Source of the DNA: Eukaryota sp. GEM-RC1
Taxonomy: Eukaryota
Direction of reading: 5' to 3'
Length of the DNA stretch: 64,000 nucleotides
Assembly (NCBI GenBank): GCA_040285855.1
Contig: JAUFOQ010000018.1
Location: forward strand, 186,001 to 250,000
Below the pieces are notes generated by a model. The model saw only the letters and a program-made list of their open reading frames with translations. It made no database searches and was not told the origin of the DNA. Of the stretch, positions 12,671 through 64,000 are shown one piece after another. The translations under genes and the position numbers were made by a program. Position 1 is the first letter of the stretch; every line of letters starts with the position of its first letter.

Positions 12671-12751
12671 GAGTACGGTAAAGTTTTCAATGAAAATTTT
12701 TTGGTTTGAGTAGGTCAACTTTTGTGTTGTTTCGTTCAAAGCACAGATGTT

Positions 12752-24285: not shown

Positions 24286-24495
24286 AAACAGTATGATACA
24301 AAGTAAGACACAGAAGAGCGTATTTGTCAACTACTTGTGCTGTTCTTAACAACTTTGCCAAAATCAGAGAATTCGTTATTTTGACTCATGTAATCTGGAA
24401 AATATCCCAAAAAGACATAAGATTGTGCAAGGTGTACCATCTCTGTGCTATAGCGATATGATTGAATCCTGGCGGAACTGAGTTGATTTAGGATT

Positions 24496-34591: not shown

Positions 34592-34932
34592 TGAATTAGT
34601 GGAAAATGACAGTGATGATAATGAAAACGATTGTTCATCAACATTCATGTCAAAAACTGATGAGGATGGTTTCAAGAAGTAACAATGACTTGGGAAACAT
34701 TTTGAATCAACATTTTGTAATGATTTCCTATTGTTTGCTTGTAGAAGTTGAATTTGATCATTTTGAAATTGTGTTATCTTTTTAAAATATTCAAGTTCTT
34801 CTAGTAAAGAGGAATTATTATCATCTTTCATTGAATTTTGAAACTCTGAATTTTGAAAAATGTCAATTATTTCAGAAATTCTAGGACGTTGATCAATATT
34901 TATTGACAATACGAGATCTTGAACAATATGAT

Positions 34933-35396
34933 CAGGGATGGGAAATATTGAATTTCCAATCCAATATTGCCAATCAATATCTATAAGATTATTTTCTCCC
35001 ATTACTAGTAAGCTTTGTATGGGCCAAAATCGATATTGTTTATCGTCAGCAAGATTTGAGCAATAGCCATGGCTGCCCTTCAATCGAAGTCCTTGGAATG
35101 TGAACACTTTTAGAAATGCTTGCCAATCCCACTGGTCTGAAGAAGATGAAATCGTTGATGGAGATGGAGTTTAGAGGCTCAAAACTTAAAACTATTTGTT
35201 CGCAACAAATTGTTGCATTTCTTTCTGTAGTATAAAATTTAGATAGGTTTTGTTTTGATATCTTTCATTATTTTAGTGTATTAACTATACAATCTACATA
35301 TTGCAATATTGACAATATATTGGAGCCAATACTGTATTGATTGGTGTGCTGTTTTCCAATACCAATATATTGCCAATCCAATATTTCCTATCCCTG
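34933..35396. mobile_element. Non-autonomous hAT-type element/MITE (464 bp)
   Basis: TIR CAGGGATGGGAAATATTG / CAATATTTCCTATCCCTG (1 mismatch in 18). Perfect 8-bp TSD AATATGAT at 34925-34932 and 35397-35404. Subterminal CAATATTG motifs. Confidence 0.9.
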
Positions 35397-35427
35397 AATA
35401 TGATATTGTTATTGGGAACAATAAATA

Positions 35428-37177: not shown

Positions 37178-37299
37178 TATATATTTCTGACAAAATATTG
37201 CAATATTGAAAAATACAAACATAACGGAACTTATTTACAACAAAAGTGTTCTCTAAGAGTTTGAAATCATGCATATAAAACAATCTTTTATCTCTTAAA

Positions 37300-37720
37300 G
37301 ATACATGAAAACTAAAGACGTTAACAAAATTAACAATACTATTCCATGACAAAATCTTGAACCTCAAAGCGTTTCTTCAAAATTGCGTCAAAATACTAAA
37401 ACATTGAACGAAATTTAGAAAAAACGAGACGATCCCTCCAAAAATAACTTTACTTATACGCAACACAATTGAGTATAAGGTGACAAAAACGTTTGAGCTG
37501 CAGAACCTAGATTTTCTTTACTTTGGTTGAAACACCAAAGCAGTATATCTTCGTGAATTCAATTTAGAAATATAATCACAATGACGAAGGCATTTCTTGT
37601 CTTCAGCAATATCCAAAGATGAAAATTGAGCATCCAATATTTTGCTACTAGCAGTATCAATCCATGGATCCACAGTGGTGAAAACCAAAACAACTTCCTG
37701 CGAATTGTTTGATTATTCCA
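37300..37720 (-). mobile_element. Degenerate RLE non-LTR remnant
   Basis: SQEVVLVFTTVDPWIDTASSKILDAQFSSLDIAEDKK aligns with CQEIFMDFTTVDPCNSRSISKIFDDDFSALEVAAKAK at ~25095-25205. WRDRLVF follows downstream. Confidence 0.75.
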
Positions 37721-37841
37721 GAAGGCACGTTTGTATAGCAAGAACTATTGTTTTCCATAATAAAATTATCTGGAGCATGTCCATGACAACCTATAGTGAG
37801 TTTTATGCGACTGAATAGTCAATACACTTCATCCAAGGATG

Positions 37842-37886
37842 TGTCAGCCACAGTGTTACAAGATCATATTATTATATTTATAAACA
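37842..37886 (+). repeat. Left-most LTR-like terminus (45 bp, TGTC...AACA)
   Basis: Similarity to the array begins exactly at this TGT, the position that follows the PPT in internal junctions. Confidence 0.65.
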
Positions 37887-37936
37887 TCTTTTCCCTACCC
37901 TTTGTAGCCAAACGGTATCAATAAATATAGTCCAAG

Positions 37937-38632
37937 ATGGTGAAGAAAAGGACTACTAACCCCCCAAAACCGGGAAACAAAACTAATCGAAGAAACAAAC
38001 CTTTGACAAGATCTAAGTCTAGCTCCAAAATGTCTTCCCGTCGAAAGGAGCCATTGGTTCCTGAGACAGAAGAGTCAGTTGACTCGTCGGACTTTGAAAG
38101 TGACCCATCTGAGGATGGATGCCTGTCTGAGGACGGATGCCTATCTGAGGATAGAAGCCCCACTTCCCACAAGTAGGTGACGGAAATCTCACCTGAGGTT
38201 GGTGAATCTACTTCTCGTAGAGTTGTAGATGTTCAACCTGAAGGTGGATGCCCATCTGAGGATGGAAGGACTTCGTCTTCCCGCAAGGATGGCGAAGTGG
38301 GTTTGGATACTCTTTTCTGTAATTTCAGACCGTATCCCAAGCTTGTTAGAGAAGTATAGAGTAAGCGATGCTGACAGTAGCAGTACTCCGCATTCCGAGA
38401 GTCATGATGTTGTTGTAACAGCGTCTCCTCTCCCCATTCTTCCTCGTAGAAATAGTTTTAATAAAGAAAGCATTCCCGATGTTGTTCCAGTTCCTCAAAA
38501 GAGGTCAACTGAAGTGGTTGAAGAGATTCGCAAGTTACAGGAATCTTTCGCCAAACAGCAGTCTAGAAGACTCGAAGCAGAACAGAAGCTTTTATTTGAA
38601 AAGGAACTTCTAGCTCGTAAGATGAGTCTCTC
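37937..38632 (+). pseudogene. Unit 1 5' ORF remnant (gag-like N-terminus: basic, S/E/D-rich, short coiled coil); repeated in every unit
   Basis: MVKKRTT... with 18-bp SEDGCL repeats, an in-frame TAG at 38174-38176, a later frameshift, then EEIRKLQES...LARKMSLS. The gag identity is inferred from position only. Confidence 0.5.
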
Positions 38633-38664
38633 TTCTAGAAGATCGAGGCAACAAAGTTGTCTTG

Positions 38665-39691
38665 TGTGGGATGTGATTGCTATCTTTGGAATACCGTTTT
38701 GTATCCATAGTGATAATGGTACGGAGTTTGCCAATGCTATTTTCGAGGCAATATGTAACCTACTGGCGATTGAAGTAAGTCGTTCGATTCCTCATTTCTC
38801 CCAGAGTAATGGACTGGTGGAACGACGTCACAGAGACGTTCTGCAAAGCCTACGTCGTCTTCTTGTGGACTTCAATGATTATGACAATTGGTCAACGTAC
38901 ATTCCAACTGTACAGTTGCAGATCAACGCAACAAAGAGTTCAATAACTGGACATACTCCTTACGAACTGATGTTTGGTTGTGACATAAGTCCTGGTGCAG
39001 ATCCTAGTAGTTTACTAGATGCTGTTGAGAAATCAACAAAGAATGTTCCGTTTATTGACGACATTAAAACGAAACTAGAACGTTTAACGAAACAAAGAGA
39101 AGAGGCAGAGGATCGTCAATCAGTACTCAAGCCTAAGAAGAAGTCTAACACTAGTCAATCATTTAAGATTGGAGATCTTGTGTTAAAGGTCGTCAAAACT
39201 AGTAAGCTCCATGGAAACTACACTGGACCTTTTCTAGTTGTCTCAGTTGATTCAAAATCTTTGTTTCATTAAAAAATCTGATCACTATATATGTTAGTAA
39301 GACTAGCATTCATCAATGTAAGATCTTTCAATCAGATTTACCTGCTGATTATGATCTCCACAGAGCAATTGCTTCTGGGAATTCTGAAGAACACATCGTG
39401 GTTAAGATGCTAGATAGGTTTGATACACCCGATGGTGAACTCTGCACTGTACTTTGGTTTGGCGGTGATACTACATCAGTTCCCATCAAGGACATCAAGA
39501 ACACCAAAGCGTATAGTGACTTTGTAAAATTAGACAATTTAGATTTATTTCGTAACAATAGAAACAGGTCTAGTAATAACAATACTAAGCATAAACCCAC
39601 CTCCAGAAGTAAGAGTACTCCAAAGACGTCTTCCAAAGTTAAGGCACCTGTAGCAAAGAGAACTAGGAGCTCGAAAGGAGAGAAGAAGTAA
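38665..39691 (+). pseudogene. Unit 1 N-terminally truncated Gypsy-like integrase with GPF motif and chromodomain-like tail; repeated in every unit
   Basis: FGIP..IHSDNGTEF...SNGLVERRHR with exact D-35-E spacing, TGHTPYELMFG, FKIGDLVL...KLHGNYTGPFLV, a frameshift near 39270, then EEHIVVKMLD...CTVLWFGGDTTSVP. The HHCC finger and first catalytic Asp are absent. Confidence 0.9.
39673..39688 (+). other. Polypurine tract (representative; present at the end of every complete unit)
   Basis: 16 consecutive purines, GAAAGGAGAGAAGAAG, 3 nt before the TGT that starts the LTR-like sequence. Confidence 0.8.
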
Positions 39692-39748
39692 TGTTAGCCA
39701 CAGGTGTTAGTGAAGTGTTACAAGATCATATGATTTTATTTATAAACA
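39692..39748 (+). repeat. Shared internal mini-LTR (representative, 57 bp TGTT...AACA; may extend to the CA at 39771)
   Basis: Follows the PPT, has TGTT/AACA inverted ends, and occurs once between consecutive units. Confidence 0.6.
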
Positions 39749-42700
39749 TCATTTCCCTACCCTTGTAGCCAAACGGTATCAATAATTATTGTCCAAGATG
39801 GTGAAGAAAAGGACTACTAACCCCCCAAAAGCGGGAAACAAAACTAATCGAAGAAACAAACCTTTGACAAGATCTAAGTCTAGCTCCAAAATGTCTTCCC
39901 GTCGAAAGGAGCCATTGGTTCCTGAGACAGAAGAGTCAGTTGACTCGTCGGACTTTGAAAGTGACCCATCTGAGGATGGATGCCTGTCTGAGGACGGATG
40001 CCTATCTGAGGATAGAAGCCCCACTTCCCACAAGTAGGTGACGGAAATCTCACCTGAGGTTGGTGAATCTACTTCTCGTAGAGTTGTAGATGTTCAACCT
40101 GAAGGTGGATGCCCATCTGAGGATGGAAGGACTTCGTCTTCCCGCAAGGATGGCGAAGTGGGTTTGGATACTCATTTCTGTAATTTCAGACCGTATCTCA
40201 AGCTTGTTAGAGAAGTATAGAGTAAGCGATGCTGACAGTAGCAGTACTCCGCGTTCCGAAAGTCATGATGTTGTTGTAACAGCGTCTCCTCTCCCTATTC
40301 TTCCCTCGTAGAAATAGTTTTAATAAAGAAAGCATTCCTGATGTTGTTCCAGTTCCTCAAAAGAGGTCAACTGAAGTGGTTGAAGAGATTCGCAAGTTAC
40401 AGGAATCTCTCGCCAAAGAGCAGTCTAGAAGACTCGAAGCAGAACAGAAGCTTCTTGTTGAAAAGGAACTTCTAGCTCGTAAGATGAGTCTCTCTTCTAG
40501 AAGATCGAGGCAACAAAGTTGTCTTGTGTGGGATGTGATTGCTATCTTTGGAATACCGTTTTGTATCCATAGTGATAATGGTACGGAGTTTGCCAATGCT
40601 ATTTTCGAGGCAATATGTAACCTACTGGCGATTGAAGTAAGTCGTTCGATTCCTCATTTCTCCCAGAGTAATGGACTGGTGGAACGACGTCACAGAGACG
40701 TTCTGCAAAGCCTACGTCGTCTTCTTGTGGACTTCAATGATTATGACAATTGGTCAACGTACATTCCAACTGTACAGTTGCAGATCAACGCAACAAAGAG
40801 TTCAATAACTGGACATACTCCTTACGAACTGATGTTTGGTTGTGACATAAGTCCTGGTGCAGATCCTAGTAGTTTACTAGATGCTGTTGAGAAATCAACA
40901 AAGAATGTTCCGTTTATTGACGACATTAAAACGAAACTAGAACGTTTAACGAAACAAAGAGAAGAGGCAGAGGATCGTCAATCAGTACTCAAGCCTAAGA
41001 AGAAGTCTAACACTAGTCAATCATTTAAGATTGGAGATCTTGTGTTAAAGGTCGTCAAAACTAGTAAGCTCCATGGAAACTACACTGGACCTTTTCTAGT
41101 TGTCTCAGTTGATTCAAAATCTTTGTTTCATTAAAAAATCTGATCACTATATATGTTAGTAAGACTAGCATTCATCAATGTAAGATCTTTCAATCAGATT
41201 TACCTGCTGATTATGATCTCCACAGAGCAATTGCTTCTGGGAATTCTGAAGAACACATCGTGGTTAAGATGCTAGATAGGTTTGATACACCCGATGGTGA
41301 ACTCTGCACTGTACTTTGGTTTGGCGGTGATACTACATCAGTTCCCATCAAGGACATCAAGAACACCAAAGCGTATAGTGACTTTGTAAAATTAGACAAT
41401 TTAGATTTATTTCGTAACAATAGAAACAGGTCTAGTAATAACAATACTAAGCATAAACCCACCTCCAGAAGTAAGAGTACTCCAAAGACGTCTTCCAAAG
41501 TTAAGGCACCTGTAGCAAAGAGAACTAGGAGCTCGAAAGGAGAGAAGAAGTAATGTTAGCCACAGGTGTTAGTGAAGTGTTACAAGATCATATGATTTTA
41601 TTTATAAACATCATTTCCCTACCCTTGTAGCCAAACGGTATCAATAATTATTGTCCAAGATGGTGAAGAAAAGGACTACTAACCCCCCAAAAGCGGGAAA
41701 CAAAACTAATCGAAGAAACAAACCTTTGACAAGATCTAAGTCTAGCTCCAAAATGTCTTCCCGTCGAAAGGAGCCATTGGTTCCTGAGACAGAAGAGTCA
41801 GTTGACTCGTCGGACTTTGAAAGTGACCCATCTGAGGATGGATGCCTGTCTGAGGACGGATGCCTATCTGAGGATAGAAGCCCCACTTCCCACAAGTAGG
41901 TGACGGAAATCTCACCTGAGGTTGGTGAATCTACTTCTCGTAGAGTTGTAGATGTTCAACCTGAAGGTGGATGCCCATCTGAGGATGGAAGGACTTCGTC
42001 TTCCCGCAAGGATGGCGAAGTGGGTTTGGATACTCATTTCTGTAATTTCAGACCGTATCTCAAGCTTGTTAGAGAAGTATAGAGTAAGCGATGCTGACAG
42101 TAGCAGTACTCCGCGTTCCGAAAGTTATGATGTTGTTGTAACAGCGTCTCCTCTCCCTATTCTTCCTCGTAGAAATAGTTTTAATAAAGAAAGCATTCCT
42201 GATGTTGTTCCAGTTCCTCAAAAGAGGTCAACTGAAGTGGTTGAAGAGATTCGCAAGTTACAGGAATCTCTCGCCAAAGAGCAGTCTAGAAGACTCGAAG
42301 CAGAACAGAAGCTTCTTGTTGAAAAGGAACTTCTAGCTCGTAAGATGAGTCTCTCTCCAGAAGATCGAGGCAACAAAGTCGTCTTGTGTGGGATGTGATT
42401 GCTATCTTTGGAATACCGTTTTGTATCCATAGTGATAATGGTACGGAGTTTGCCAATGCTATTTTCGAGGCAATATGTAACCTACTGGCGATTGAAGTAG
42501 GTCGTTCGATTCCTCATTTCTCCCAGAGTAATGGACTGCTGGAACGACGTCACAGAGACGTTCTGCAAAGCCTACGTCGTCTTCTTGTGGACTTCAATGA
42601 TTATGACAATTGGTCAACGTACATTCCAACTGTACAGTTGCAACAGGTCAACGCAACAAAGAGTTCAATAACTGGACATACTCCTTACGAACTGATGTTT

Positions 42701-45700
42701 GGTTGTGACATAAGTCCTGGTGCAGATCCTAGTAGTTTACTAGATGCTGTTGAGAAATCAACAAAGAATGTTCCGTTTATTGACGACATTAAAACGAAAC
42801 TAGAACGTTTAACGAAACAAAGAGAAGAGGCAGAGGATCGTCAATCAGTACTCAAGCCTAAGAAGAAGTCTAACACTAGTCAATCATTTAAGATTGGAGA
42901 TCTTGTGTTAAAGGTCGTCAAAACTAGTAAGCTCCATGGAAACTACACTGGACCTTTTCTAGTTGTCTCAGTTGATTCAAAATCTTTGTTTCATTAAAAA
43001 TCTGATCACTATATATGTTAGTAAGACTAGCATTCATCAATGTAAGATCTTTCAATCAGATCTACCTGCTGATCATGATCTCCACAGAGCAATTGCTTCT
43101 GGGAATTCTGAAGAACACATCGTGGTTAAGATGCTAGATAGGTTTGATACACCCGATGGTGAACTCTGCACTGTACTTTGGTTTGGTGGTGATACTACAT
43201 CAGTTCCCATCAAGGACATCAAGAACACCAAAGCGTATAGTGACTTTGTAAAATTAGACAATTTAGATTTATTTCGTAACAATAGAAACAGGTCTAGTAA
43301 TAACAATACTAAGCATAAACCCACCTCCAGAAGTAAGAGTACTCCAAAGACGTCTTCCAAAGTTAAGACACCTGTAGCAAAGAGAACTAGGAGCTCGAAA
43401 GGAGAGAAGAAGTAATGTTAGCCACAGGTGTTAGTGAAGTGTTACAAGATCATATGATTTTATTTATAAACATCTTTTCCCTACCCTTTGTAGCCAAACG
43501 GTATCAATAAATATAGTCCAAGATGGTGAAGAAAAGGACTACTAACCCCCCAAAAGCGGGAAACAAAACTAATCGAAGAAACAACCCTTTGACAAGATCT
43601 AAGTCTAGCTCCAAAATGTCTTCCCGTCGAAAGAAGCCATTGGTTCCTGAGACAGAAGAGTCAGTTGACTCGTCGGACTTTGAAAGTGACCCATCTGAGG
43701 ATGGATGCCTGTCTGAGGACGGATGCCTATCTGAGGATAGAAGCCCCACTTCCCACAAGTAGGTGACGGAAATCTCACCTGAGGTTGGTGAATCTACTTC
43801 TCGTAGAGTTGTAGATGTTCAACCTGAAGGTGGATGCCCATCTGAGGATGGAAGGACTTCGTCTTCCCGCAAGGATGGCGAAGTGGGTTTGGATACTCAT
43901 TTCTGTAATTTCAGACCGTATCCCAAGCTTGTTAGAGAAGTATAGAGTAAGCGATGCTGACAGTAGCAGTACTCCGCATTCCGAGAGTCATGATGTTGTT
44001 GTAACAGCGTCTCCTCTCCCCATTCTTCCTCGTAGAAATAGTTTTAATAAAGAAAGCATTCCCGATGTTGTTCCAGTTCCTCAAAAGAGGTCAACTGAAG
44101 TGGTTGAAGAGATTCGCAAGTTACAGGAATCTTTCGCCAAACAGCAGTCTAGAAGACTCGAAGCAGAACAGAAGCTTCTTGTTGAAAAGGAACTTCTAGC
44201 TCGTAAGATGAGTCTCTCTCCAGAAGATCGAGGCAACAAAGTCGTCTTATGTGGGATGTGATTGCTATCTTTGGAATACCGTTTTGTATCCATAGTGATA
44301 ATGGTACGGAGTTTGCCAATGCTATTTTCGAGGCAATATGTAACCTACTGGCGATTGAAGTAAGTCGTTCGATTCCTCATTTCTCCCAGAGTAATGGACT
44401 GGTGGAACGACGTCACAGAGACGTTCTGCAAAGCCTACGTCGTCTTCTTGTGGACTTCAATGATTATGACAATTGGTCAACGTACATTCCAACTGTACAG
44501 TTGCAGATCAACGCAACAAAGAGTTCAATAACTGGACATACTCCTTACGAACTGATGTTTGGTTGTGACATAAGTCCTGGTGCAGATCCTAGTAGTTTAC
44601 TAGATGCTGTTGAGAAATCAACAAAGAATGTTCCGTTTATTGACGACATTAAAACGAAACTAGAACGTTTAACGAAACAAAGAGAAGAGGCAGAGGATCG
44701 TCAATCAGTACTCAAGCCTAAGAAGAAGTCTAACACTAGTCAATCATTTAAGATTGGAGATCTTGTGTTAAAGGTCGTCAAAACTAGTAAGCTCCATGGA
44801 AACTACACTGGACCTTTTCTAGTTGTCTCAGTTGATTCAAAATCTTTGTTTCATTAAAAAATCTGATCACTATATATGTTAGTAAGACTAGCATTCATCA
44901 ATGTAAGATCTTTCAATCAGATTTACCTGCTGATTATGATCTCCACAGAGCAATTGCTTCTGGGAATTCTGAAGAACACATCGTGGTTAAGATGCTAGAT
45001 AGGTTTGATACACCCGATGGTGAACTCTGCACTGTACTTTGGTTTGGCGGTGATACTACATCAGTTCCCATCAAGGACATCAAGAACACCAAAGCGTATA
45101 GTGACTTTGTAAAATTAGACAATTTAGATTTATTTCGTAACAATAGAAACAGGTCTAGTAATAACAATACTAAGCATAAACCCACCTCCAGAAGTAAGAG
45201 TACTCCAAAGACGTCTTCCAAAGTTAAGGCACCTGTAGCAAAGAGAACTAGGAGCTCGAAAGGAGAGAAGAAGTAATGTTAGCCACAGGTGTTAGTGAAG
45301 TGTTACAAGATCATATGATTTTATTTATAAACATCTTTTCCCTACCCTTTGTAGCCAAACGGTATCAATAATTATTGTCCAAGATGGTGAAGAAAAGGAC
45401 TACTAACCCCCCAAAAGCGGGAAACAAAACTAATCGAAGAAACAAACCTTTGACAAGATCTAAGTCTAGCTCCAAAATGTCTTCCCGTCGAAAGGAGCCA
45501 TTGGTTCCTGAAACAGAAGAGTCAGTTGACTCGTCGGACTTTGAAAGTGACCCATCTGAGGATGGATGCCTGTCTGAGGACGGATGCCTATCTGAGGATA
45601 GAAGCCCCACTTCCCACAAGTAGGTGACGGAAATCTCACCTGAGGTTGGTGAATCTACTTCTCGTAGAGTTGTAGATGTTCAACCTGAAGGTGGATGCCC

Positions 45701-48700
45701 ATCTGAGGATGGAAGGACTTCGTCTTCCCGCAAGGATGGGGATGTGGGTTTGGATACTCATTTCTGTAATTTCAGACCGTATCTCAAGCTTGTTAGAGAA
45801 GTATAGAGTAAGCGATGCTGACAGTAGCAGTACTCCGCGTTCCGAAAGTCATGATGTTGTTGTAACAGCGTCTCCTCTCCCTATTCTTCCCTCGTAGAAA
45901 TAGTTTTAATAAAGAAAGCATTCCTGATGTTGTTCCAGTTCCTCAAAAGAGGTCAACTGAAGTGGTTGAAGAGATTCGCAAGTTACAGGAATCTCTCGCC
46001 AAAGAGCAGTCTAGAAGACTCGAAGCAGAACAGAAGCTTCTTGTTGAAAAGGAACTTCTAGCTCGTAAGATGAGTCTCTCTTCTAGAAGATCGAGGCAAC
46101 AAAGTTGTCTTGTGTGGGATGTGATTGCTATCTTTGGAATACCGTTTTGTATCCATAGTGATAATGGTACGGAGTTTGCCAATGCTATTTTCGAGGCAAT
46201 ATGTAACCTACTGGCGATTGAAGTAAGTCGTTCGATTCCTCATTTCTCCCAGAGTAATGGACTGGTGGAACGACGTCACAGAGACGTTCTGCAAAGCCTA
46301 CGTCGTCTTCTTGTGGACTTCAATGATTATGACAATTGGTCAACGTACATTCCAACTGTACAGTTGCAGATCAACGCAACAAAGAGTTCAATAACTGGAC
46401 ATACTCCTTACGAACTGATGTTTGGTTGTGACATAAGTCCTGGTGCAGATCCTAGTAGTTTACTAGATGCTGTTGAGAAATCAACAAAGAATGTTCCGTT
46501 TATTGACGACATTAAAACGAAACTAGAACGTTTAACGAAACAAAGAGAAGAGGCAGAGGATCGTCAATCAGTACTCAAGCCTAAGAAGAAGTCTAACACT
46601 AGTCAATCATTTAAGATTGGAGATCTTGTGTTAAAGGTCGTCAAAACTAGTAAGCTCCATGGAAACTACACTGGACCTTTTCTAGTTGTCTCAGTTGATT
46701 CAAAATCTTTGTTTCATTAAAAAATCTGATCACTATATATGTTAGTAAGACTAGCATTCATCAATGTAAGATCTTTCAATCAGATTTACCTGCTGATTAT
46801 GATCTCCACAGAGCAATTGCTTCTGGGAATTCTGAAGAACACATCGTGGTTAAGATGCTAGATAGGTTTGATACACCCGATGGTGAACTCTGCACTGTAC
46901 TTTGGTTTGGCGGTGATACTACATCAGTTCCCATCAAGGACATCAAGAACACCAAAGCGTATAGTGACTTTGTAAAATTAGACAATTTAGATTTATTTCG
47001 TAACAATAGAAACAGGTCTAGTAATAACAATACTAAGCATAAACCCACCTCCAGAAGTAAGAGTACTCCAAAGACGTCTTCCAAAGTTAAGGCACCTGTA
47101 GCAAAGAGAACTAGGAGCTCGAAAGGAGAGAAGAAGTAATGTTAGCCACAGGTGTTAGTGAAGTGTTACAAGATCATATGATTTTATTTATAAACATCAT
47201 TTCCCTACCCTTTGTAGCCAAACGGTATCAATAATTATTGTCCAAGATGGTGAAGAAAAGGACTACTAACCCCCCAAAAGCGGGAAACAAAACTAATCGA
47301 AGAAACAAACCTTTGACAAGATCTAAGTCTAGCTCCAAAATGTCTTCCCGTCGAAAGGAGCCATTGGTTCCTGAGACAGAAGAGTCAGTTGACTCGTCGG
47401 ACTTTGAAAGTGACCCATCTGAGGATGGATGCCTGTCTGAGGACGGATGCCTATCTGAGGATAGAAGCCCCACTTCCCACAAGTAGGTGACGGAAATCTC
47501 ACCTGAGGTTGGTGAATCTACTTCTCGTAGAGTTGTAGATGTTCAACCTGAAGGTGGATGCCCATCTGAGGATGGAAGGACTTCGTCTTCCCGCAAGGAT
47601 GGCGAAGTGGGTTTGGATACTCATTTCTGTAATTTCAGACCGTATCTCAAGCTTGTTAGAGAAGTATAGAGTAAGCGATGCTGACAGTAGCAGTACTCCG
47701 CGTTCCGAAAGTCATGATGTTGTTGTAACAGCGTCTCCTCTCCCTATTCTTCCTCGTAGAAATAGTTTTAATAAAGAAAGCATTCCTGATGTTGTTCCAG
47801 TTCCTCAAAAGAGGGCAACTGAAGTGGTTGAAGAGATTCGCAAGTTACAGGAATCTCTCGCCAAAGAGCAGTCTAGAAGACTCGAAGCAGAACAGAAGCT
47901 TTTATTTGAAAAGGAACTTCTAGCTCGTAAGATGAGTCTCTCTCCAGAAGATCGAGGCAACAAAGTCGTCTTGTGTGGGATGTGATTGCTATCTTTGGAA
48001 TACCGTTTTGTATCCATAGTGATAATGGTACGGAGTTTGCCAATGCTATTTTCGAGGCAATATGTAACCTACTGGCGATTGAAGTAGGTCGTTCGATTCC
48101 TCATTTCTCCCAGAGTAATGGACTGGTGGAACGACGTCACAGAGACGTTCTGCAAAGCCTACGTCGTCTTCTTGTGGACTTCAATGATTATGACAATTGG
48201 TCAACGTACATTCCAACTGTACAGTTGCAGATCAACGCAACAAAGAGTTCAATAACTGGACATACTCCTTACGAACTGATGTTTGGTTGTGACATAAGTC
48301 CTGGTGCAGATCCTAGTAGTTTACTAGATGCTGTTGAGAAATCAACAAAGAATGTTCCGTTTATTGACGACATTAAAACGAAACTAGAACGTTTAACGAA
48401 ACAAAGAGAAGAGGCAGAGGATCGTCAATCAGTACTCAAGCCTAAGAAGAAGTCTAACACTAGTCAATCATTTAAGATTGGAGATCTTGTGTTAAAGGTC
48501 GTCAAAACTAGTAAGCTCCATGGAAACTACACTGGACCTTTTCTAGTTGTCTCAGTTGATTCAAAATCTTTGTTTCATTAAAAAATCTGATCACTATATA
48601 TGTTAGTAAGACTAGCATCCATCAATGTAAGATCTTTCAATCAGATCTACCTGCTGATCATGATCTCCACAGAGCAATTGCTTCTGGGAATTCTGAAGAA

Positions 48701-51700: not shown

Positions 51701-54700
51701 GGGATGTGATTGCTATCTTTGGAATACCGTTTTGTATCCATAGTGATAATGGTATGGAGTTTGCCAATGCTATTTTCGAGGCAATATGTAACCTACTGGC
51801 GATTGAAGTAAGTCGTTCGATTCCTCATTTCTCCCAGAGTAATGGACTGGTGGAACGACGTCACAGAGACGTTCTGCAAAGCCTACGTCGTCTTCTTGTG
51901 GACTTCAATGATTATGACAATTGGTCAACGTACATTCCAACTGTACAGTTGCAGATCAACGCAACAAAGAGTTCAATAACTGGACATACTCCTTACGAAC
52001 TGATGTTTGGTTGTGACATAAGTCCTGGTGCAGATCCTAGTAGTTTACTAGATGCTGTTGAGAAATCAACAAAAAATGTTCCGTTTATTGACGACATTAA
52101 AACGAAACTAGAACGTTTAACGAAACAAAGAGAAGAGGCAGAGGATCGTCAATCAGTACTCAAGCCTAAGAAGAAGTCTAACACTAGTCAATCATTTAAG
52201 ATTGGAGATCTTGTGTTAAAGGTCGTCAAAACTAGTAAGCTCTATGGAAACTACACTGGACCTTTTCTAGTTGTCTCAGTTTATTCAAAATCTTTGTTTG
52301 ATTAAAAAATCTGATCACTGGATATGTTAGTAAGACTAGCATTCATCAATGTAAGATCTTACAATCAGATCTACCTGCTGATCATGATCTCCACAGAGCA
52401 ATTGCTTCTGGGGATTCTGAAGAACACATCGTGGTTAAGATGCTAGATAGGTTTGATACACCCGATGGTGAATTCTGCACTGTACTTTGGTTTGGTGGTG
52501 ATACTACATCAGTTCCCATCAAGGACATCAAGAACACCAAAGCGTATAGTGACTTTGTAAAATTAGACAATTTAGATTTATTTCGTAACAATAGAAACAG
52601 GTCTAGTAATAACAATACTAAGCATAAACCCACCTCCAGAAGTAAGAGTACTCCAAAGACGTCTTCCAAAGTTAAGGCACCTGTAGCAAAGAGAACTAGG
52701 AGCTCGAAAGGAGAGAAGAAGTAATGTTAGCCACAGGTGTTAGTGAAGTGTTACAAGATCATATGATTTTATTTATAAACATCTTTTCCCTACCCTTTGT
52801 AGCCAAACGGTATCAATAATTATTGTCCAAGATGGTGAAGAAAAGGACTACTAACCCCCCAAAAGCGGGAAACAAAACTAATCGAAGAAACAAACCTTTG
52901 ACAAGATCTAAGTCTAGCTCCAAAATGTCTTCCCGTCGAAAGGAGCCATTGGTTCCTGAGACAGAAGAGTCAGTTGACTCGTCGGACTTTGAAAGTGACC
53001 CATCTGAGGATGGATGCCTGTCTGAGGACGGATGCCTATCTGAGGATAGAAGCCCCACTTCCCACAAGTAGGTGACGGAAATCTCACCTGAGGTTGGTGA
53101 ATCTACTTCTCGTAGAGTTGTAGATGTTCAACCTGAAGGTGGATGCCCATCTGAGGATGGAAGGACTTCGTCTTCCCGCAAGGATGGCGAAGTGGGTTTG
53201 GATACTCATTTCTGTAATTTCAGACCGTATCCCAAGCTTGTTAGAGAAGTATAGAGTAAGCGATGCTGACAGTAGCAGTACTCCGCATTCCGAGAGTCAT
53301 GATGTTGTTGTAACAGCGTCTCCTCTCCCCATTCTTCCCTCGTAGAAATAGTTTTAATAAAGAAAGCATTCCCGATGTTGTTCCAGTTCCTCAAAGAGGT
53401 CAACTGAAGTGGTTGAAGAGATTTGCAAGTTACAGGAATCTTTCGCCAAACAGCAGTCTAGAAGACTCGAAGCAGAACAGAAGCTTTTATTTGAAAAGGA
53501 ACTTCTAGCTCGTAAGATGAGTCTCTCTCCAGAAGATCGAGGCAACAAAGTCGTCTTGTGTGGGATGTGATTGCTATCTTTGGAATACCGTTTTGTATCC
53601 ATAGTGATAATGGTACGGAGTTTGCCAATGCTATTTTCGAGGCAATATGTAACCTACTGGCGATTGAAGTAAGTCGTTCGATTCCTCATTTCTCCCAGAG
53701 TAATGGACTGGTGGAACGACGTCACAGAGACGTTCTGCAAAGCCTACGTCGTCTTCTTGTGGACTTCAATGATTATGACAATTGGTCAACGTACATTCCA
53801 ACTGTACAGTTGCAGATCAACGCAACAAAGAGCTCAATAACTGGACATACTCCTTACGAACTGATGTTTGGTTGTGACATAGTCCTGGTGCAGATCCTAG
53901 TAGTTTACTAGATGCTGTTGAGAAATCAACAAAGAATGTTCAGTTTATTGACGACATTAAAACGAAACTAGAACGTTTAACGAAACAAAGAGAAGAGGCA
54001 GAGGATCGTCAATCAGTACTCAAGCCTAAGAAGAAGTCTAACACTAGTCAATCATTTAAGATTGGAGATCTTGTGTTAAAGGTCGTCAAAACTAGTAAGC
54101 TCTATGAAAACTACACTGGACCTTTTCTAGTTGTCTCAGTTTATTCAAAATCTTTGTTTGATTAAAAAATCTGATCACTGGATATGTTAGTAAGACTAGC
54201 ATTCATCAATGTAAGATCTTACAATCAGATCTACCTGCTGATCATGATCTCCACAGAGCAATTGCTTCTGGGGATTCTGAAGAACACATCGTGGTTAAGA
54301 TGCTAGATAGGTTTGATACACCCGATGGTGAATTCTGCACTGTACTTTGGTTTGGTGGTGATACTACATCAGTTCCCATCAAGGACATCAAGAACACCAA
54401 AGCGTATAGTGACTTTGTAAAATTAGACAATTTAGATTTATTTCGTAACAATAGAAACAGGTCTAGTAATAACAATACTAAGCATAAACCCACCTCCAGA
54501 AGTAAGAGTACTCCAAAGACGTCTTCCAAAGTTAAGGCACCTGTAGCAAAGAGAACTAGGAGCTCGAAAGGAGAGAAGAAGTAATGTTAGCCACAGGTGT
54601 TAGTGAAGTGTTACAAGATCATATGATTTTATTTATAAACATCTTTTCCCTACCCTTTGTAGCCAAACGGTATCAATAATTATTGTCCAAGATGGTGAAG

Positions 54701-57700
54701 AAAGGACTACTAACCCCCCAAAAGCGGGAAACAAAACTAATCGAAGAAACAAACCTTTGACAAGATCTAAGTCTAGCTCCAAAATGTCTTCCCGTCGAAA
54801 GGAGCCATTGGTTCCTGAGACAGAAGAGTCAGTTGACTCGTCGGACTTTGAAAGTGACCCATCTGAGGATGGATGCCTGTCTGAGGACGGATGCCTATCT
54901 GAGGATAGAAGCCCCACTTCCCACAAGTAGGTGACGGAAATCTCACCTGAGGTTGGTGAATCTACTTCTCGTAGAGTTGTAGATGTTCAACCTGAAGGTG
55001 GATACCCATCTGAGGATGGAAGGACTTCGTCTTCCCGCAAGGATGGCGAAGTGGGTTTGGATACTCATTTCTGTAATTTCAGACCGTATCCCAAGCTTGT
55101 TAGAGAAGTATAGAGTAAGCGATGCTGACAGTAGCAGTTCTCGGCATTCCGAGAGTCATGATGTTGTTGTAACAGCGTCTCCTCTCCCCATTCTTCCTCG
55201 TAGAAATAGTTTTAATAAAGAAAGCATTCCCGATGTTGTTCCAGTTCCTCAAAAGAGGTCAACTGAAGTGGTTGAAGAGATTCGCAAGTTACAGGAATCT
55301 TTCGCCAAACAGCAGTCTAGAATACTCGAAGCAGAACAGAAGCTTTTATTTGAAAAGGAACTTCTAGCTCGTAAGATGAGTCTCTCTCCAGAAGATCGAG
55401 GCAACAAAGTCGTCTTGTGTGGGATGTGATTGCTATCTTTGGAATACCGTTTTGTATCCATAGTGATAATGGTACGGAGTTTGCCAATGCTATTTTCGAG
55501 GCAATATGTAACCTACTGGCGATTGAAGTAAGTCGTTCGATTCCTCATTTCTCCCAGAGTAATGGACTGGTGGAACGACGTCACAGAGACGTTCTGCAAA
55601 GCCTACGTCGTCTTCTTGTGGACTTCAATGATTATGACAATTGGTCAACGTACATTCCAACTGTACAGTTGCAGATCAACGCAACAAAGAGTTCAATAAC
55701 TGGACATACTCCTTACGAACTGATGTTTGGTTGTGACATAAGTCCTGGTGCAGATCCTAGTAGTTTACTAGATGCTGTTGAGAAATCAACAAAGAATGTT
55801 CCGTTTATTGACGACATTAAAACGAAACTAGAACGTTTAACGAAACAAAGAGAAGAGGCAGAGGATCGTCAATCAGTACTCAAGCCTAAGAAGAAGTCTA
55901 ACACTAGTCAATCATTTAAGATTGGAGATCTTGTGTTAAAGGTCGTCAAAACTAGTAAGCTCCATGGAAACTACACTGGACCTTTTCTAGTTGTCTCAGT
56001 TGATTCAAAATCTTTGTTTCATTAAAAATCTGATCACTATATATGTTAGTAAGACTAGCATTCATCAATGTAAGATCTTTCAATCAGATCTACCTGCTGA
56101 TCATGATCTCCACAGAGCAATTGCTTCTGGGAATTCTGAAGAACACATCGTGGTTAAGATGCTAGATAGGTTTGATACACCCGATGGTGAACTCTGCACT
56201 GTACTTTGGTTTGGTGGTGATACTACATCAGTTCCCATCAAGGACATCAAGAACACCAAAGCGTATAGTGACTTTGTAAAATTAGACAATTTAGATTTAT
56301 TTCGTAACAATAGAAACAGGTCTAGTAATAACAATACTAAGCATAAACCCACCTCCAGAAGTAAGAGTACTCCAAAGACGTCTTCCAAAGTTAAGACACC
56401 TGTAGCAAAGAGAACTAGGAGCTCGAAAGGAGAGAAGAAGTAATGTTAGCCACAGGTGTTAGTGAAGTGTTACAAGATCATATGATTTTATTTATAAACA
56501 TCTTTTCCCTACCCTTTGTAGCCAAACGGTATCAATAAATATAGTCCAAGATGGTGAAGAAAAGGACTACTAACCCCCCAAAAGCGGGAAACAAAACTAA
56601 TCGAAGAAACAACCCTTTGACAAGATCTAGGTCTAGCTCCAAAATGTCTTCCCGTCGAAAGGAGCCATTGGTTCCTGAGACAGAAGAGTCAGTTGACTCG
56701 TCGGACTTTGAAAGTGACCCATCTGAGGATGGATGCCTGTCTGAGGACGGATGCCTATCTGAGGATAGAAGCCCCACTTCCCACAAGTAGGTGACGGAAA
56801 TCTCACCTGAGGTTGGTGAATCTACTTCTCGTAGAGTTGTAGATGTTCAACCTGAAGGTGGATGCCCATCTGAGGATGGAAGGACTTCGTCTTCCCGCAA
56901 GGATGGCGAAGTGGGTTTGGATACTCATTTCTGTAATTTCAGACCGTATCTCAAGCTTGTTAGAGAAGTATAGAGTAAGCAATGCTGACAGTAGCAGTAC
57001 TCCGCGTTCCGAAAGTCATGATGTTGTTGTAACAGCGTCTCCTCTCCCTATTCTTCCTCGTAGAAATAGTTTTAATAAAGAAAGCATTCCTGATGTTGTT
57101 CCAGTTCCTCAAAAGAGGGCAACTGAAGTGGTTGAAGAGATTCGCAAGTTACAGGAATCTCTCGCCAAAGAGCAGTCTAGAAGACTCGAAGCAGAACAGA
57201 AGCTTTTATTTGAAAAGGAACTTCTAGCTCGTAAGATGAGTCTCTCTCCAGAAGATCGAGGCAACAAAGTCGTCTTGTGTGGGATGTGATTGCTATCTTT
57301 GGAATACCGTTTTGTATCCATAGTGATAATGGTACGGAGTTTGCCAATGCTATTTTCGAGGCAATATGTAACCTACTGGCGATTGAAGTAAGTCGTTCGA
57401 TTCCTCATTTCTCCCAGAGTAATGGACTGGTGGAACGACGTCACAGAGACGTTCTGCAAAGCCTACGTCGTCTTCTTGTGGACTTCAATGATTATGACAA
57501 TTGGTCAACGTACATTCCAACTGTACAGTTGCAGATCAACGCAACAAAGAGTTCAATAACTGGACATACTCCTTACGAACTGATGTTTGGTTGTGACATA
57601 AGTCCTGGTGCAGATCCTAGTAGTTTACTAGATGCTGTTGAGAAATCAACAAAGAATGTTCCGTTTATTGACGACATTAAAACGAAACTAGAACGTTTAA

Positions 57701-60700
57701 CGAAACAAAGAGAAGAGGCAGAGGATCGTCAATCAGTACTCAAGCCTAAGAAGAAGTCTAACACTAGTCAATCATTTAAGATTGGAGATCTTGTGTTAAA
57801 GGTCGTCAAAACTAGTAAGCTCCATGGAAACTACACTGGACCTTTTCTAGTTGTCTCAGTTGATTCAAAATCTTTGTTTCATTAAAAATCTGATCACTAT
57901 ATATGTTAGTAAGACTAGCATTCATCAATGTAAGATCTTTCAATCAGATCTACCTGCTGATCATGATCTCCACAGAGCAATTGCTTCTGGGAATTCTGAA
58001 GAACACATCGTGGTTAAGATGCTAGATAGGTTTGATACACCCGATGGTGAACTCTGCACTGTACTTTGGTTTGGTGGTGATACTACATCAGTTCCCATCA
58101 AGGACATCAAGAACACCAAAGCGTATAGTGACTTTGTAAAATTAGACAATTTAGATTTATTTCGTAACAATAGAAACAGGTCTAGTAATAACAATACTAA
58201 GCATAAACCCACCTCCAGAAGTAAGAGTACTCCAAAGACGTCTTCCAAAGTTAAGACACCTGTAGCAAAGAGAACTAGGAGCTCGAAAGGAGAGAAGAAG
58301 TAATGTTAGCCACAGGTGTTAGTGAAGTGTTACAAGATCATATGATTTTATTTATAAACATCTTTTCCCTACCCTTTGTAGCCAAACGGTATCAATAAAT
58401 ATAGTCCAAGATGGTGAAGAAAAGGACTACTAACCCCCCAAAAGCGGGAAACAAAACTAATCGAAGAAACAACCCTTTGACAAGATCTAAGTCTAGCTCC
58501 AAAATGTCTTCCCGTCGAAAGGAGCCATTGGTTCCTGAGACAGAAGAGTCAGTTGACTCGTCGGACTTTGAAAGTGACCCATCTGAGGATGGATGCCTGT
58601 CTGAGGACGGATGCCTATCTGAGGATAGAAGCCCCACTTCCCACAAGTAGGTGACGGAAATCTCACCTGAGGTTGGTGAATCTACTTCTCGTAGAGTTGT
58701 AGATGTTCAACCTGAAGGTGGATGCCCATCTGAGGATGGAAGGACTTCGTCTTCCCGCAAGGATGGCGAAGTGGGTTTGGATACTCATTTCTGTAATTTC
58801 AGACCGTATCTCAAGCTTGTTAGAGAAGTATAGAGTAAGCAATGCTGACAGTAGCAGTACTCCGCGTTCCGAAAGTCATGATGTTGTTGTAACAGCGTCT
58901 CCTCTCCCTATTCTTCCTCGTAGAAATAGTTTTAATAAAGAAAGCATTCCTGATGTTGTTCCAGTTCCTCAAAAGAGGGCAACTGAAGTGGTTGAAGAGA
59001 TTCGCAAGTTACAGGAATCTCTCGCCAAAGAGCAGTCTAGAAGACTCGAAGCAGAACAGAAGCTTTTATTTGAAAAGGAACTTCTAGCTCGTAAGATGAG
59101 TCTCTCTCCAGAAGATCGAGGCAACAAAGTCGTCTTGTGTGGGATGTGATTGCTATCTTTGGAATACCGTTTTGTATCCATAGTGATAATGGTACGGAGT
59201 TTGCCAATGCTATTTTCGAGGCAATATGTAACCTACTGGCGATTGAAGTAAGTCGTTCGATTCCTCATCTCCCAGAGTAATGGACTGGTGGAACGACGTC
59301 ACAGAGACGTTCTGCAAAGCCTACGTCGTCTTCTTGTGGACTTCAATGATTATGACAATTGGTCAACGTACATTCCAACTGTACAGTTGCAGATCAACGC
59401 AACAAAGAGTTCAATAACTGGACATACTCCTTACGAACTGATGTTTGGTTGTGACATAAGTCCTGGTGCAGATCCTAGTAGTTTACTAGATGCTGTTGAG
59501 AAATCAACAAAGAATGTTCCGTTTATTGACGACATTAAAACGAAACTAGAACGTTTAACGAAACAAAGAGAAGAGGCAGAGGATCGTCAATCAGTACTCA
59601 AGCCTAAGAAGAAGTCTAACACTAGTCAATCATTTAAGATTGGAGATCTTGTGTTAAAGGTCGTCAAAACTAGTAAGCTCCATGGAAACTACACTGGACC
59701 TTTTCTAGTTGTCTCAGTTGATTCAAAATCTTTGTTTCATTAAAAATCTGATCACTATATATGTTAGTAAGACTAGCATTCATCAATGTAAGATCTTTCA
59801 ATCAGATCTACCTGCTGATCATGATCTCCACAGAGCAATTGCTTCTGGGAATTCTGAAGAACACATCGTGGTTAAGATGCTAGATAGGTTTGATACACCC
59901 GATGGTGAACTCTGCACTGTACTTTGGTTTGGTGGTGATACTACATCAGTTCCCATCAAGGACATCAAGAACACCAAAGCGTATAGTGACTTTGTAAAAT
60001 TAGACAATTTAGATTTATTTCGTAACAATAGAAACAGGTCTAGTAATAACAATACTAAGCATAAACCCACCTCCAGAAGTAAGAGTACTCCAAAGACGTC
60101 TTCCAAAGTTAAGGCACCTGTAGCAAAGAGAACTAGGAGCTCGAAAGGAGAGAAGAAGTAATGTTAGCCACAGGTGTTAGTGAAGTGTTACAAGATCATA
60201 TGATTTTATTTATAAACATCTTTTCCCTACCCTTTGTAGCCAAACGGTATCAATAAATATAGTCCAAGATGGTGAAGAAAGGACTACTAACCCCCAAAGC
60301 GGGAAACAAAACTAATCGAAGAAACAAACCTTTGACAAGATCTAAGTCTAGCTCCAAAATGTCTTCCCGTCGAAAGGAGCCATTGGTTCCTGAGACAGAA
60401 GAGTCAGTTGACTCGTCGGACTTTGAAAGTGACCCATCTGAGGATGGATGCCTGTCTGAGGACGGATGCCTATCTGAGGATAGAAGCCCCACTTCCCACA
60501 AGTAGGTGACGGAAATCTCACCTGAGGTTGGTGAATCTACTTCTCGTAGAGTTGTAGATGTTCAACCTGAAGGTGGATGCCCATCTGAGGATGGAAGGAC
60601 TTCGTCTTCCCGCAAGGATGGCGAAGTGGGTTTGGATACTCATTTCTGTAATTTCAGACCGTATCCCAAGCTTGTTAGAGAAGTATAGAGTAAGCGATGC

Positions 60701-63700
60701 TGACAGTAGCAGTACTCCGCATTCCGAGAGTCATGATGTTGTTGTAACAGCGTCTCCTCTCCCATTCTTCCTCGTAGAAATAGTTTTAATAAAGAAAGCA
60801 TTCCCGATGTTGTTCCAGTTCCTCAAAAGAGGTCAACTGAAGTGGTTGAAGAGATTCGCAAGTTACAGGAATCTTTCGCCAAACAGCAGTCTAGAAGACT
60901 CGAAGCAGAACAGAAGCTTTTATTTGAAAAGGAACTTCTAGCTCGTAAGATGAGTCTCTCTCCAGAAGATCGAGGCAACAAAGTCGTCTTGTGTGGGATG
61001 TGATTGCTATCTTTGGAATACCGTTTTGTATCCATAGTGATAATGGTACGGAGTTTGCCAATGCTATTTTCGAGGCAATATGTAACCTACTGGCGATTGA
61101 AGTAAGTCGTTCGATTCCTCATTTCTCCCAGAGTAATGGACTGGTGGAACGACGTCACAGAGACGTTCTGCAAAGCCTACGTCGTCTTCTTGTGGACTTC
61201 AATGATTATGACAATTGGTCAACGTACATTCCAACTGTACAGTTGCAGATCAACGCAACAAAGAGTTCAATAACTGGACATACTCCTTACGAACTGATGT
61301 TTGGTTGTGACATAAGTCCTGGTGCAGATCCTAGTAGTTTACTAGATGCTGTTGAGAAATCAACAAAGAATGTTCCGTTTATTGACGACATTAAAACGAA
61401 ACTAGAACGTTTAACGAAACAAAGAGAAGAGGCAGAGGATCGTCAATCAGTACTCAAGCCTAAGAAGAAGTCTAACACTAGTCAATCATTTAAGATTGGA
61501 GATCTTGTGTTAAAGGTCGTCAAAACTAGTAAGCTCCATGGAAACTACACTGGACCTTTTCTAGTTGTCTCAGTTGATTCAAAATCTTTGTTTCATTAAA
61601 AATCTGATCACTATATATGTTAGTAAGACTAGCATTCATCAATGTAAGATCTTTCAATCAGATCTACCTGCTGATCATGATCTCCACAGAGCAATTGCTT
61701 CTGGGAATTCTGAAGAACACATCGTGGTTAAGATGCTAGATAGGTTTGATACACCCGATGGTGAACTCTGCACTGTACTTTGGTTTGGTGGTGATACTAC
61801 ATCAGTTCCCATCAAGGACATCAAGAACACCAAAGCGTATAGTGACTTTGTAAAATTAGACAATTTAGATTTATTTCGTAACAATAGAAACAGGTCTAGT
61901 AATAACAATACTAAGCATAAACCCACCTCCAGAAGTAAGAGTACTCCAAAGACGTCTTCCAAAGTTAAGGCACCTGTAGCAAAGAGAACTAGGAGCTCGA
62001 AAGGAGAGAAGAAGTAATGTTAGCCACAGGTGTTAGTGAAGTGTTACAAGATCATATGATTTTATTTATAAACATCTTTTCCCTACCCTTTGTAGCCAAA
62101 CGGTATCAATAAATATAGTCCAAGATGGTGAAGAAAAGGACTACTAACCCCCAAAAGCGGGAAACAAAACTAATCGAAGAAACAAACCTTTGACAAGATC
62201 TAAGTCTAGCTCCAAAATGTCTTCCCGTCGAAAGGAGCCATTGGTTCCTGAGACAGAAGAGTCAGTTGACTCGTCGGACTTTGAAAGTGACCCATCTGAG
62301 GATGGATGCCTATCTGAGGATAGAAGCCCCACTTCCCACAAGTAGGTGACGGAAATCTCACCTGAGGTTGGTGAATCTACTTCTCGTAGAGTTGTAGATG
62401 TTCAACCTGAAGGTGGATGCCCATCTGAGGATGGAAGGACTTCGTCTTCCCGCAAGGATGGCGAAGTGGGTTTGGATACTCATTTCTGTAATTTCAGACC
62501 GTATCCCAAGCTTGTTAGAGAAGTATAGAGTAAGCGATGCTGACAGTAGCAGTACTCCGCATTCTGAGAGTCATGATGTTGTTGTAACAGCGTCTCCTCT
62601 CCCCATTCTTCCTCGTAGAAATAGTTTTAATAAAGAAAGCATTCCCGATGTTGTTCCAGTTCCTCAAAAGAGGTCAACTGAAGTGGTTGAAGAGATTCGC
62701 AAGTTACAGGAATCTTTCGCCAAACAGCAGTCTAGAAAACTCGAAGCAGAACAGAAGCTTTTATTTGAAAAGGAACTTCTAGCTCGTAAGATGAGTCTCT
62801 CTCCAGAAGATCGAGGCAACAAAGTCGTCTTGTGTGGGATGTGATTGCTATCTTTGGAATACCGTTTTGTATCCATAGTGATAATGGTACGGAGTTTGCC
62901 AATGCTATTTTCGAGGCAATATGTAACCTACTGGCGATTGAAGTAAGTCGTTCGATTCCTCATTTCTCCCAGAGTAATGGACTGGTGGAACGACGTCACA
63001 GAGACGTTCTGCAAAGCCTACGTCGTCTTCTTGTGGACTTCAATGATTATGACAATTGGTCAACGTACATTCCAACTGTACAGTTGCAGATCAACGCAAC
63101 AAAGAGTTCAATAACTGGACATACTCCTTACGAACTGATGTTTGGTTGTGACATAAGTCCTGGTGCAGATCCTAGTAGTTTACTAGATGCTGTTGAGAAA
63201 TCAACAAAGAATGTTCCGTTTATTGACGACATTAAAACGAAACTAGAACGTTTAACGAAACAAAGAGAAGAGGCAGAGGATCGTCAATCAGTACTCAAGC
63301 CTAAGAAGAAGTCTAACACTAGTCAATCATTTAAGATTGGAGATCTTGTGTTAAAGGTCGTCAAAACTAGTAAGCTCCATGGAAACTACACTGGACCTTT
63401 TCTAGTTGTCTCAGTTGATTCAAAATCTTTGTTTCATTAAAAATCTGATCACTATATATGTTAGTAAGACTAGCATTCATCAATGTAAGATCTTTCAATC
63501 AGATCTACCTGCTGATCATGATCTCCACAGAGCAATTGCTTCTGGGAATTCTGAAGAACACATCGTGGTTAAGATGCTAGATAGGTTTGATACACCCGAT
63601 GGTGAACTCTGCACTGTACTTTGGTTTGGTGGTGATACTACATCAGTTCCCATCAAGGACATCAAGAACACCAAAGCGTATAGTGACTTTGTAAAATTAG

Positions 63701-64000
63701 ACAATTTAGATTTATTTCGTAACAATAGAAACAGGTCTAGTAATAACAATACTAAGCATAAACCCACCTCCAGAAGTAAGAGTACTCCAAAGACGTCTTC
63801 CAAAGTTAAGACACCTGTAGCAAAGAGAACTAGGAGCTCGAAAGGAGAGAAGAAGTAATGTTAGCCACAGGTGTTAGTGAAGTGTTACAAGATCATATGA
63901 TTTTATTTATAAACATCTTTTCCCTACCCTTTGTAGCCAAACGGTATCAATAAATATAGTCCAAGATGGTGAAGAAAGGACTACTAACCCCCCAAAAGCG

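Follow-up and report, generated by a model that had tools for sequence, protein, structure and literature searches.

Shared-LTR tandems of LTR retrotransposons follow the order LTR-internal-LTR-internal, with one LTR at each junction, are ascribed mainly to ectopic LTR recombination and, in the portions of the literature used here, are mostly dimers or otherwise short; the route through LTR-LTR exchange has been established in Drosophila and plants (PMC5932611, PMC11899658, PMC7215508). The array described here, from Eukaryota sp. GEM-RC1, has the same order but comprises at least 14, and probably at least 21, copies of one deleted unit, and is found in a metamonad.

Further close systems have been described. 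Cassandra/TRIM elements resemble the array in that they combine a small non-autonomous unit, shared LTRs and long near-identical arrays; however, in the portion of the source considered, TRIMs are characterized as lacking gag and pol remnants and as being dispersed and mobilised (PMC7215508), whereas decayed gag and integrase account for ~95% of the array unit, which is found on one contig only. Because its internal region is decayed coding sequence, the array unit is not a TRIM. The maize repeats CRM1TR and CRM4TR are, like the array, locus-specific tandem repeats derived from one element, with gene conversion shuffling the variation, but their monomers are sub-sequences consisting of LTR and UTR (PMC3648361, in the portion considered), whereas the array unit retains both termini of the element. 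Finally, the Athila-derived arrays of Rosa canina have monomers of 1.6-2.2 kb, close to the size of the array unit; these monomers, too, are sub-sequences, and CENH3 binding has been shown for them (10.64898/2026.09.17.752431, again in part), whereas the array is known from sequence alone.

The conversion of a retrotransposon into satellite DNA is an already known route; what is new is the presence, in the unit, of a chromodomain-like tail and of a hairpin in the first LTR. Among the papers that a search of the literature listed, none described a retrotransposon-to-satellite case in metamonads.

Organization of the array and its surroundings

In the window, that is, the whole stretch of 64,000 nt that was analysed, unit alignment delineates a head-to-tail array on the forward strand (37842..64000) that consists of 14 full units of 1,841-1,863 bp and the first 142 bp of a 15th unit, which is cut at the window end, beyond which the array continues. 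Units 1 to 8 start at positions 37842, 39692, 41554, 43416, 45277, 47140, 49001 and 50864, and units 9 to 15 at 52725, 54585, 56444, 58304, 60162, 62018 and 63859. When unit 2 was used as the query in a search of the window, the other 13 full units were recovered at 97.6-99.7% identity and no copies of the unit were found at positions 1-37841. All 14 internal junctions run from a purine tract through TAA to TGT, with a single LTR-like block each, and the left edge of the array is the TGT at 37842, i.e., the 5′ end of an LTR, with no unit sequence to the left of it. By its single-LTR junctions and its left edge at an LTR start, this is a shared-LTR tandem LTR-retrotransposon array. An earlier note on this DNA had described 14 or more near-identical units of ~1.86 kb, one LTR-like sequence between neighbours and a start exactly at the TGT of an LTR, all of which is borne out; its description of the LTR as shared by the units applies to the internal LTRs, whereas the first LTR differs from these (see below).

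Behind its LTR, each unit carries a 5′ part of gag that is broken by a stop codon and a change of frame and extends up to a deletion junction (37937..38660 in unit 1, forward strand). This region was recognized by homology to the N-terminus of the polyprotein P0001: the first 720 coding bases of the unit match it with scores of 99 and 84, neither of which was reached in any of 500 shuffles. The junction between gag and integrase is placed at 38656..38660 (forward strand) by comparison with P0124, which has the unit's last 12 gag residues at its start and then continues into further gag, and the protein sequences suggest a microhomology of 2-3 bp at this point. The integrase core (38661..39260, forward strand), delineated by alignment, resumes at residue 1389 of P0001, is identical to P0045 in 193 of 200 residues, and ends in a frameshift that is common to all units and absent in the parents. 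Given that it lacks the zinc finger as well as the first catalytic Asp, the integrase piece cannot be active; the unit is integrase-bearing, as had been claimed, inasmuch as the core is present, but this integrase is dead. A polypurine tract of 16 nt (39673..39688, forward strand) precedes a stop codon and the next LTR.

The order proposed in the earlier note, namely mini-LTR, gag-like start, second half of integrase and PPT, thus stands, with a chromodomain-like fold added to it. The same holds for the absence of protease, RT and RNase H: residues 261-1380 of P0001, which hold the RT and RNase H, have no match on the array at E <= 0.1, and P0006, which also has the protease, matches unit 1 in the integrase only. 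The sequence lost would amount to ~1,160 codons in P0001 numbering and, judging from sister polyproteins of 2,100 residues, probably to ~4.5 kb. Nine short ORFs of the unit have no exact match in the protein collection.

The closest proteins are Ty3/Gypsy polyproteins of Eukaryota sp. GEM-RC1, TZLM3-RCL and TZLM1-RC. P0001, the integrase of which is 90% identical, encompasses RT (residues 807-928), RNase H (993-1134) and integrase (1263-1433), and P0006 adds a protease (708-799), so that the parent family has the Gypsy domain order of gag, protease, RT, RNase H and integrase. The proposed search for an autonomous parent with RT and RNase H thus yielded these two relatives, whereas metagenome scans for DNA of the parent returned none of 226 candidate stretches and then one of 76, a distant match of 32% on a 2.1-kb contig. 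Skoliomonas are free-living anaerobic metamonads with isolates that include GEMRC and RCL (PMC11316075, in the portion considered), and the three sets of records named above are here taken to belong to the Skoliomonas group. By protein homology, the unit arose by deletion from a member of a Ty3/Gypsy family of Skoliomonas-type metamonads.

The left flank is rich in transposon debris. A decayed C-terminal piece of what is likely a non-LTR retroelement was detected by homology on the reverse strand (37333..37706); RT is present in 5 of the 15 scanned relatives of this fragment. The homology of this fragment ends 135 bp before the array, so that an insertion of the array inside the non-LTR coding region would be hypothetical. 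Domain search and repeats reveal, further to the left, a pogo/Tc5-type DNA transposon with 31-nt terminal inverted repeats (35420..37185, forward strand). Also left of the array are a piece of Hsp70 and a duplication of 2.9 kb at 92%, and ordinary-looking genes extend over most of the 33 kb to the left of the transposon debris. No Rfam families were found in 35000-42000, and no tRNA genes in the window.

Predicted self-priming hairpin and chromodomain-like integrase tail

Self-priming by LTR retrotransposons has been described from fungi, vertebrates and some plants, in the available portions of PMC4600332 and PMC6317226: in Tf1 and Tj1 (PMC4600332), as in Tcn1 and the elements of an accompanying survey (PMC6317226), the primer-binding site (PBS) has its complement in a segment within the 5′ LTR. 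The same arrangement is predicted here. The first (5′) LTR of the array (37842..37920, forward strand, ~79 bp, TG...CA), delineated by alignment and, at its 3′ end, by the hairpin, contains a predicted self-primer of 11 nt (37871..37881, forward strand) that is complementary to a predicted PBS located directly after the CA of the LTR (37921..37931, forward strand). Both assignments come from the fold and a shuffle test, in which 6 of 2000 shuffles gave an 11-bp helix of any kind and none of 2000 gave one after CA; this test was post hoc, the helix having first been noticed in a fold, and refers to one LTR copy. The placement of the hairpin after CA yields the LTR sizes of ~79 bp for unit 1 and ~90-91 bp for the internal copies, the first of which is located by alignment at 39692..39781 (forward strand). 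Priming by a tRNA-type site close to where gag begins was also considered, but was set aside because the hairpin fits better. The predicted pairing makes it likely that the Gypsy family is self-priming.

The full pairing of 11/11 bp occurs in unit 1 only; the internal copies retain 10/11 (n=7) or 8/11 (n=7). Furthermore, within the first 45 alignment columns, in which the internal LTRs are identical in 14 of 14 copies, the first LTR differs from them by 3 private substitutions and a 12-bp gap; at the mean divergence of the array, the 3 substitutions correspond to a Poisson p of 0.008. Because it alone keeps the full 11-bp hairpin and because of its private differences, the first LTR is interpreted as the original 5′ LTR, which stands outside the homogenisation of the array.

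The likeness to Tf1/Sushi-type chromoviruses extends to the integrase, which in these elements has a chromodomain tail comparable to the chromodomain-like tail in the parent family of the array; however, the LTR of the array, at ~80-90 bp, is very short and differs in this from the Tf1/Sushi type, and self-priming is in this case predicted from one copy. The C-terminal tail of the integrase (39386..39550, forward strand), out of frame with the core, is predicted to fold into three strands and a helix (pLDDT ~90). In a profile comparison with six relatives that bear Pfam Chromo domains, the tail scored a probability of 87% with an E of 3.6e-6, whereas four control windows stayed below 0.4%. The best Foldseek hits among the matches listed are chromo and chromoshadow domains, with a best E of 0.033 and none at E <= 0.001, and only the middle one of the three aromatic cage residues is kept. 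The tail appears to be divergent, given that the Pfam Chromo model matches none of 23 family members; a small HMM built from the 6 relatives missed it as well. Chromo annotation is present on 6 of 20 among the matches listed outside the Skoliomonas-type protist group. Going by the predicted fold and the profile comparison, the parent family appears to possess the chromovirus trait of a chromodomain at the integrase C-terminus.

Variation among units and growth of the array

Public gene models provide a view of the array beyond the window. In this evidence, a non-random sample of gene models, 18 distinct models bear the marks of the derivative and all 18, like the window ORF, lie on a contig of 2,239,312 bp, with none on another contig and no such marks in 93 further family proteins. 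The models include four window ORFs, six that match window units 2, 3, 4, 5, 6 and 14 apart from splice joints, and eight that match no window unit. Among these eight, seven integrase-covering accessions were found (P0110, P0112, P0114 twice, P0046, P0118 and P0119); three of the seven join the tail of one unit to the integrase of the next, and P0110, which differs at the start only, is the weakest of them. Variants that in the window are private to unit 3 recur in two of the gene models without a matching window unit (P0114). The array likely comprises at least ~21 units, as estimated from these models and provided that the extra ones are no assembly errors. A spread of copies along the contig, as the locus tags 010280-011172 might imply, was rejected: the six tagged models that match window units do so exactly apart from splice joints, and the locus tags are therefore not in positional order.

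Substitutions distinguish the 14 full units at 59 sites, of which 29 are shared and 30 are private, the latter spread across 11 units; the mean divergence is 0.88% and all 14 haplotypes are distinct. Four-gamete conflicts involve 14 of 91 site pairs less than 150 bp apart versus 149 of 256 pairs more than 400 bp apart (permutation p = 0.0005), and a minimum of 4 recombinations among units is required. Six linked gag sites in 221 bp divide the units 7 to 7, and a tract of 231 bp contains 8 substitutions common to units 8 and 9. In that tract, units 8 and 9 retain three parental residues that are missing in the other 12 units and yet have the frameshift of the derivative; with these features combined, random error is not the source of the tract. 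Old tracts that are 3-4% apart persist among the units, and one 150-bp stretch is represented by six haplotypes, four of them present in at least two units. Neighbouring units do not resemble each other more closely than distant units do (Mantel r = 0.04, p = 0.37), which counts against simple stepwise unequal crossing-over, a process that tends to make neighbours alike.

On balance, we consider it probable that the array derives from one dead, internally deleted Ty3/Gypsy copy, likely a single insertion, that likely grew in place, with partial homogenisation, through recurrent unequal recombination. An element that had a chromodomain and likely primed itself would have inserted among older transposon debris and would have lost most of gag-pol either before or after the insertion. 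Recombination of its 3′ LTR with the 5′ LTR of a sister copy would then have generated an initial dimer, in which the original 5′ LTR stayed behind at the left edge, and further out-of-register exchange along with gene conversion would have yielded at least ~21 copies with a mean divergence of ~0.9%, among which old tracts of 3-4% survive. With a comparable degree of confidence, growth by unequal exchange can be regarded as most likely neutral, any function of the array remaining putative. The 14 mosaic units, the recombination signal and the distinct first LTR favour slow unequal exchange over a single rolling-circle burst or an artefact. Consequently, the suggestion that a non-autonomous derivative was amplified in place, by unequal exchange or rolling circle, holds with respect to in-place growth, the shared LTRs and unequal exchange, whereas a single rolling-circle burst fits poorly (29/59 sites shared, p = 0.0005, first LTR versus 14 internal ones).

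It is accordingly unlikely, even if this is the strongest of the competing explanations, that rolling-circle replication of a one-LTR circle of the deleted element, or reverse transcription of a read-through transcript into a multimer, gave rise to a concatemer that entered the genome in a single step, most plausibly via recombination with a resident LTR. Such an origin would explain the uniform unit ends together with the unlike first LTR, would find the priming and PPT signals in cis and would be compatible with the missing gradient of neighbour similarity, and both routes have been proposed for plant tandems (PMC11899658, PMC7215508, in the portions considered). However, a single burst is expected to leave mostly private mutations, whereas half of the variable sites are shared, in linked 3-4% tracts with recombination between them; a fresh multimer inserted by integrase would have identical LTRs; and primer pairing is weakened in 14 of the 14 internal LTRs. 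A one-LTR circle that recombined into a resident LTR would produce the same left edge and could be a founding step that preceded recombination among the units.

Contig-restricted Gypsy lineages and the centromere question

Local copying in the GEM-RC1 genome does not seem to be confined to the array. In an integrase tree of 92 models and 87 columns, in which many forks are unresolved, the array forms a clade of 14 rows (96/84), and several other clades are restricted to a single contig. When the 14 rows of the array are left out, 40% of the 78 remaining integrase rows have their nearest relative on their own contig, compared to 10% in shuffles (0/2000), in a sample of ten chosen clusters with up to 15 members each among the matches listed. 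At least seven models on a contig of 3,558,747 bp have private residues in common, and at least four on a contig of 2,618,283 bp have a private frameshift in common, in both cases among the matches listed; P0169/P0179 are located on the contig of the array, so that one contig seems to carry more than one restricted lineage. From these observations, dead Gypsy elements seem to be copied locally time and again in this genome, the lineages being known from gene models and their tandem order being putative. The existence of other contig-restricted Gypsy lineages renders the array less special and yet keeps alive the idea of chromosome-specific arrays. The presence of Gypsy integrases on at least 13 contigs is at odds with the description of the genome as compact.

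The idea that each chromosome would carry one array of this unit is not supported by the location of 18 of 18 derivative models on one contig, although chromosome-specific centromeric repeats are still compatible with this distribution. We regard as doubtful the proposal of a functional centromeric or pericentromeric role for the array, in which a chromodomain-guided Gypsy family targets heterochromatin and each chromosome has expanded a dead copy of its own to form a chromosome-specific satellite. The chromodomain-like fold at the end of the parent integrase, the transposon debris in the left flank and the restricted defective Gypsy lineages on the 3,558,747-bp and 2,618,283-bp contigs are all consistent with this proposal, as is the precedent of the 1.6-2.2-kb Athila-derived arrays that bind CENH3 on some chromosomes of Rosa canina (10.64898/2026.09.17.752431, in part). 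Against it, ordinary-looking genes occupy most of the 33 kb beyond the debris, the chromodomain has one of the three cage aromatics, and the other lineages are known as gene models, with one contig seemingly holding more than one of them (P0169/P0179). In rice, moreover, LTR elements in tandem are not biased towards centromeres, according to the portion of PMC11899658 considered here, and the argument for the GEM-RC1 array proceeds from sequence and a predicted fold, leaving a role in chromatin putative. The broader conjecture, that each chromosome has its own array from a different dead chromodomain-bearing, self-priming Gypsy copy and that these arrays serve as centromeres, is improbable on present evidence.

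Least probable of all is an assembly artefact, in which a few real copies were inflated and mosaic variants arose from consensus building and polishing: single-base homopolymer losses are commoner from unit 9 onward, building up rightward and indicating weaker assembly quality inside the array, the copy number is derived here from the assembled sequence, and the published assemblies of the group, per the available part of PMC11316075, were made from Nanopore reads and polished with Illumina data, a step in which alleles of different repeats can be mixed and false mosaics created, but one or two real copies are unlikely in view of the six haplotypes in 150 bp (four of these found in at least two units) and the residues of parental type that units 8 and 9 retain, all 14 units differ, with 30 private substitutions over 11 units, further variants come from gene models that match no window unit, and no unit contains blocks of residues of the dispersed parents in the integrase core, as cross-mapping would leave.

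Under the favoured scenario of growth in place, the array offers a clean and datable example of how a retrotransposon becomes satellite DNA, with a left edge that preserves the original LTR of the founder, and it points to a metamonad Gypsy family that bears a chromodomain and is likely self-priming. A centromere atlas of 325 genomes lists Metamonada as unrepresented (10.64898/2026.09.17.752431, in the portion considered). If the arrays were indeed centromeres, they would offer the first sequence handle on metamonad centromere DNA, and if the contig-restricted lineages correspond to one CenH3-binding array per chromosome, the centromere DNA of metamonads would become directly testable.

Coding sequences upstream of the array

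Part of a long coiled-coil gene is covered by a direct duplication of 2.9 kb (window positions 21040-23890 and 29002-31878; 92% identity), each copy of which contains a 138-bp tandem repeat. On the reverse strand lie an open frame of 558 codons (26500-28176), which includes a P-loop-like motif and for which no Pfam match was found, and a fragmented Hsp70-family sequence (33331-35170), the N-terminal 200 residues of which look unrelated.

Remnants of other transposons

A DNA transposon of the pogo/Tc5 type (35420-37185) is bounded by 31-nt terminal inverted repeats accompanied by sub-terminal repeats, and its transposase is divided between two frames. Six fragments (9596-9673, 12632-12941, 13376-13516, 24493-25497, 33035-33292 and 37333-37706) belong to a retroelement family that is probably of the non-LTR type, relatives of which possess an RT.

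Gypsy elements within and beyond the window

The very short LTR of this metamonad Gypsy element encompasses a predicted hairpin of the self-priming type (37871-37931). Among the public gene models of the family, P0005 and P0020, both on the contig of 3,977,043 bp, place one Gypsy lineage directly after part of the pol of a different element, a layout that suggests nested insertion into related elements. Defective Gypsy copies were also observed on the contigs of 3,558,747 bp (P0056, P0075, P0185, P0187, P0191, P0192 and P0196) and 2,618,283 bp (P0049, P0120, P0126 and P0215). Each of these two sets is restricted to its single contig, and the members of each have private residues or a private frameshift in common. 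Both sets are candidates for additional local arrays that originate from other members of the family.
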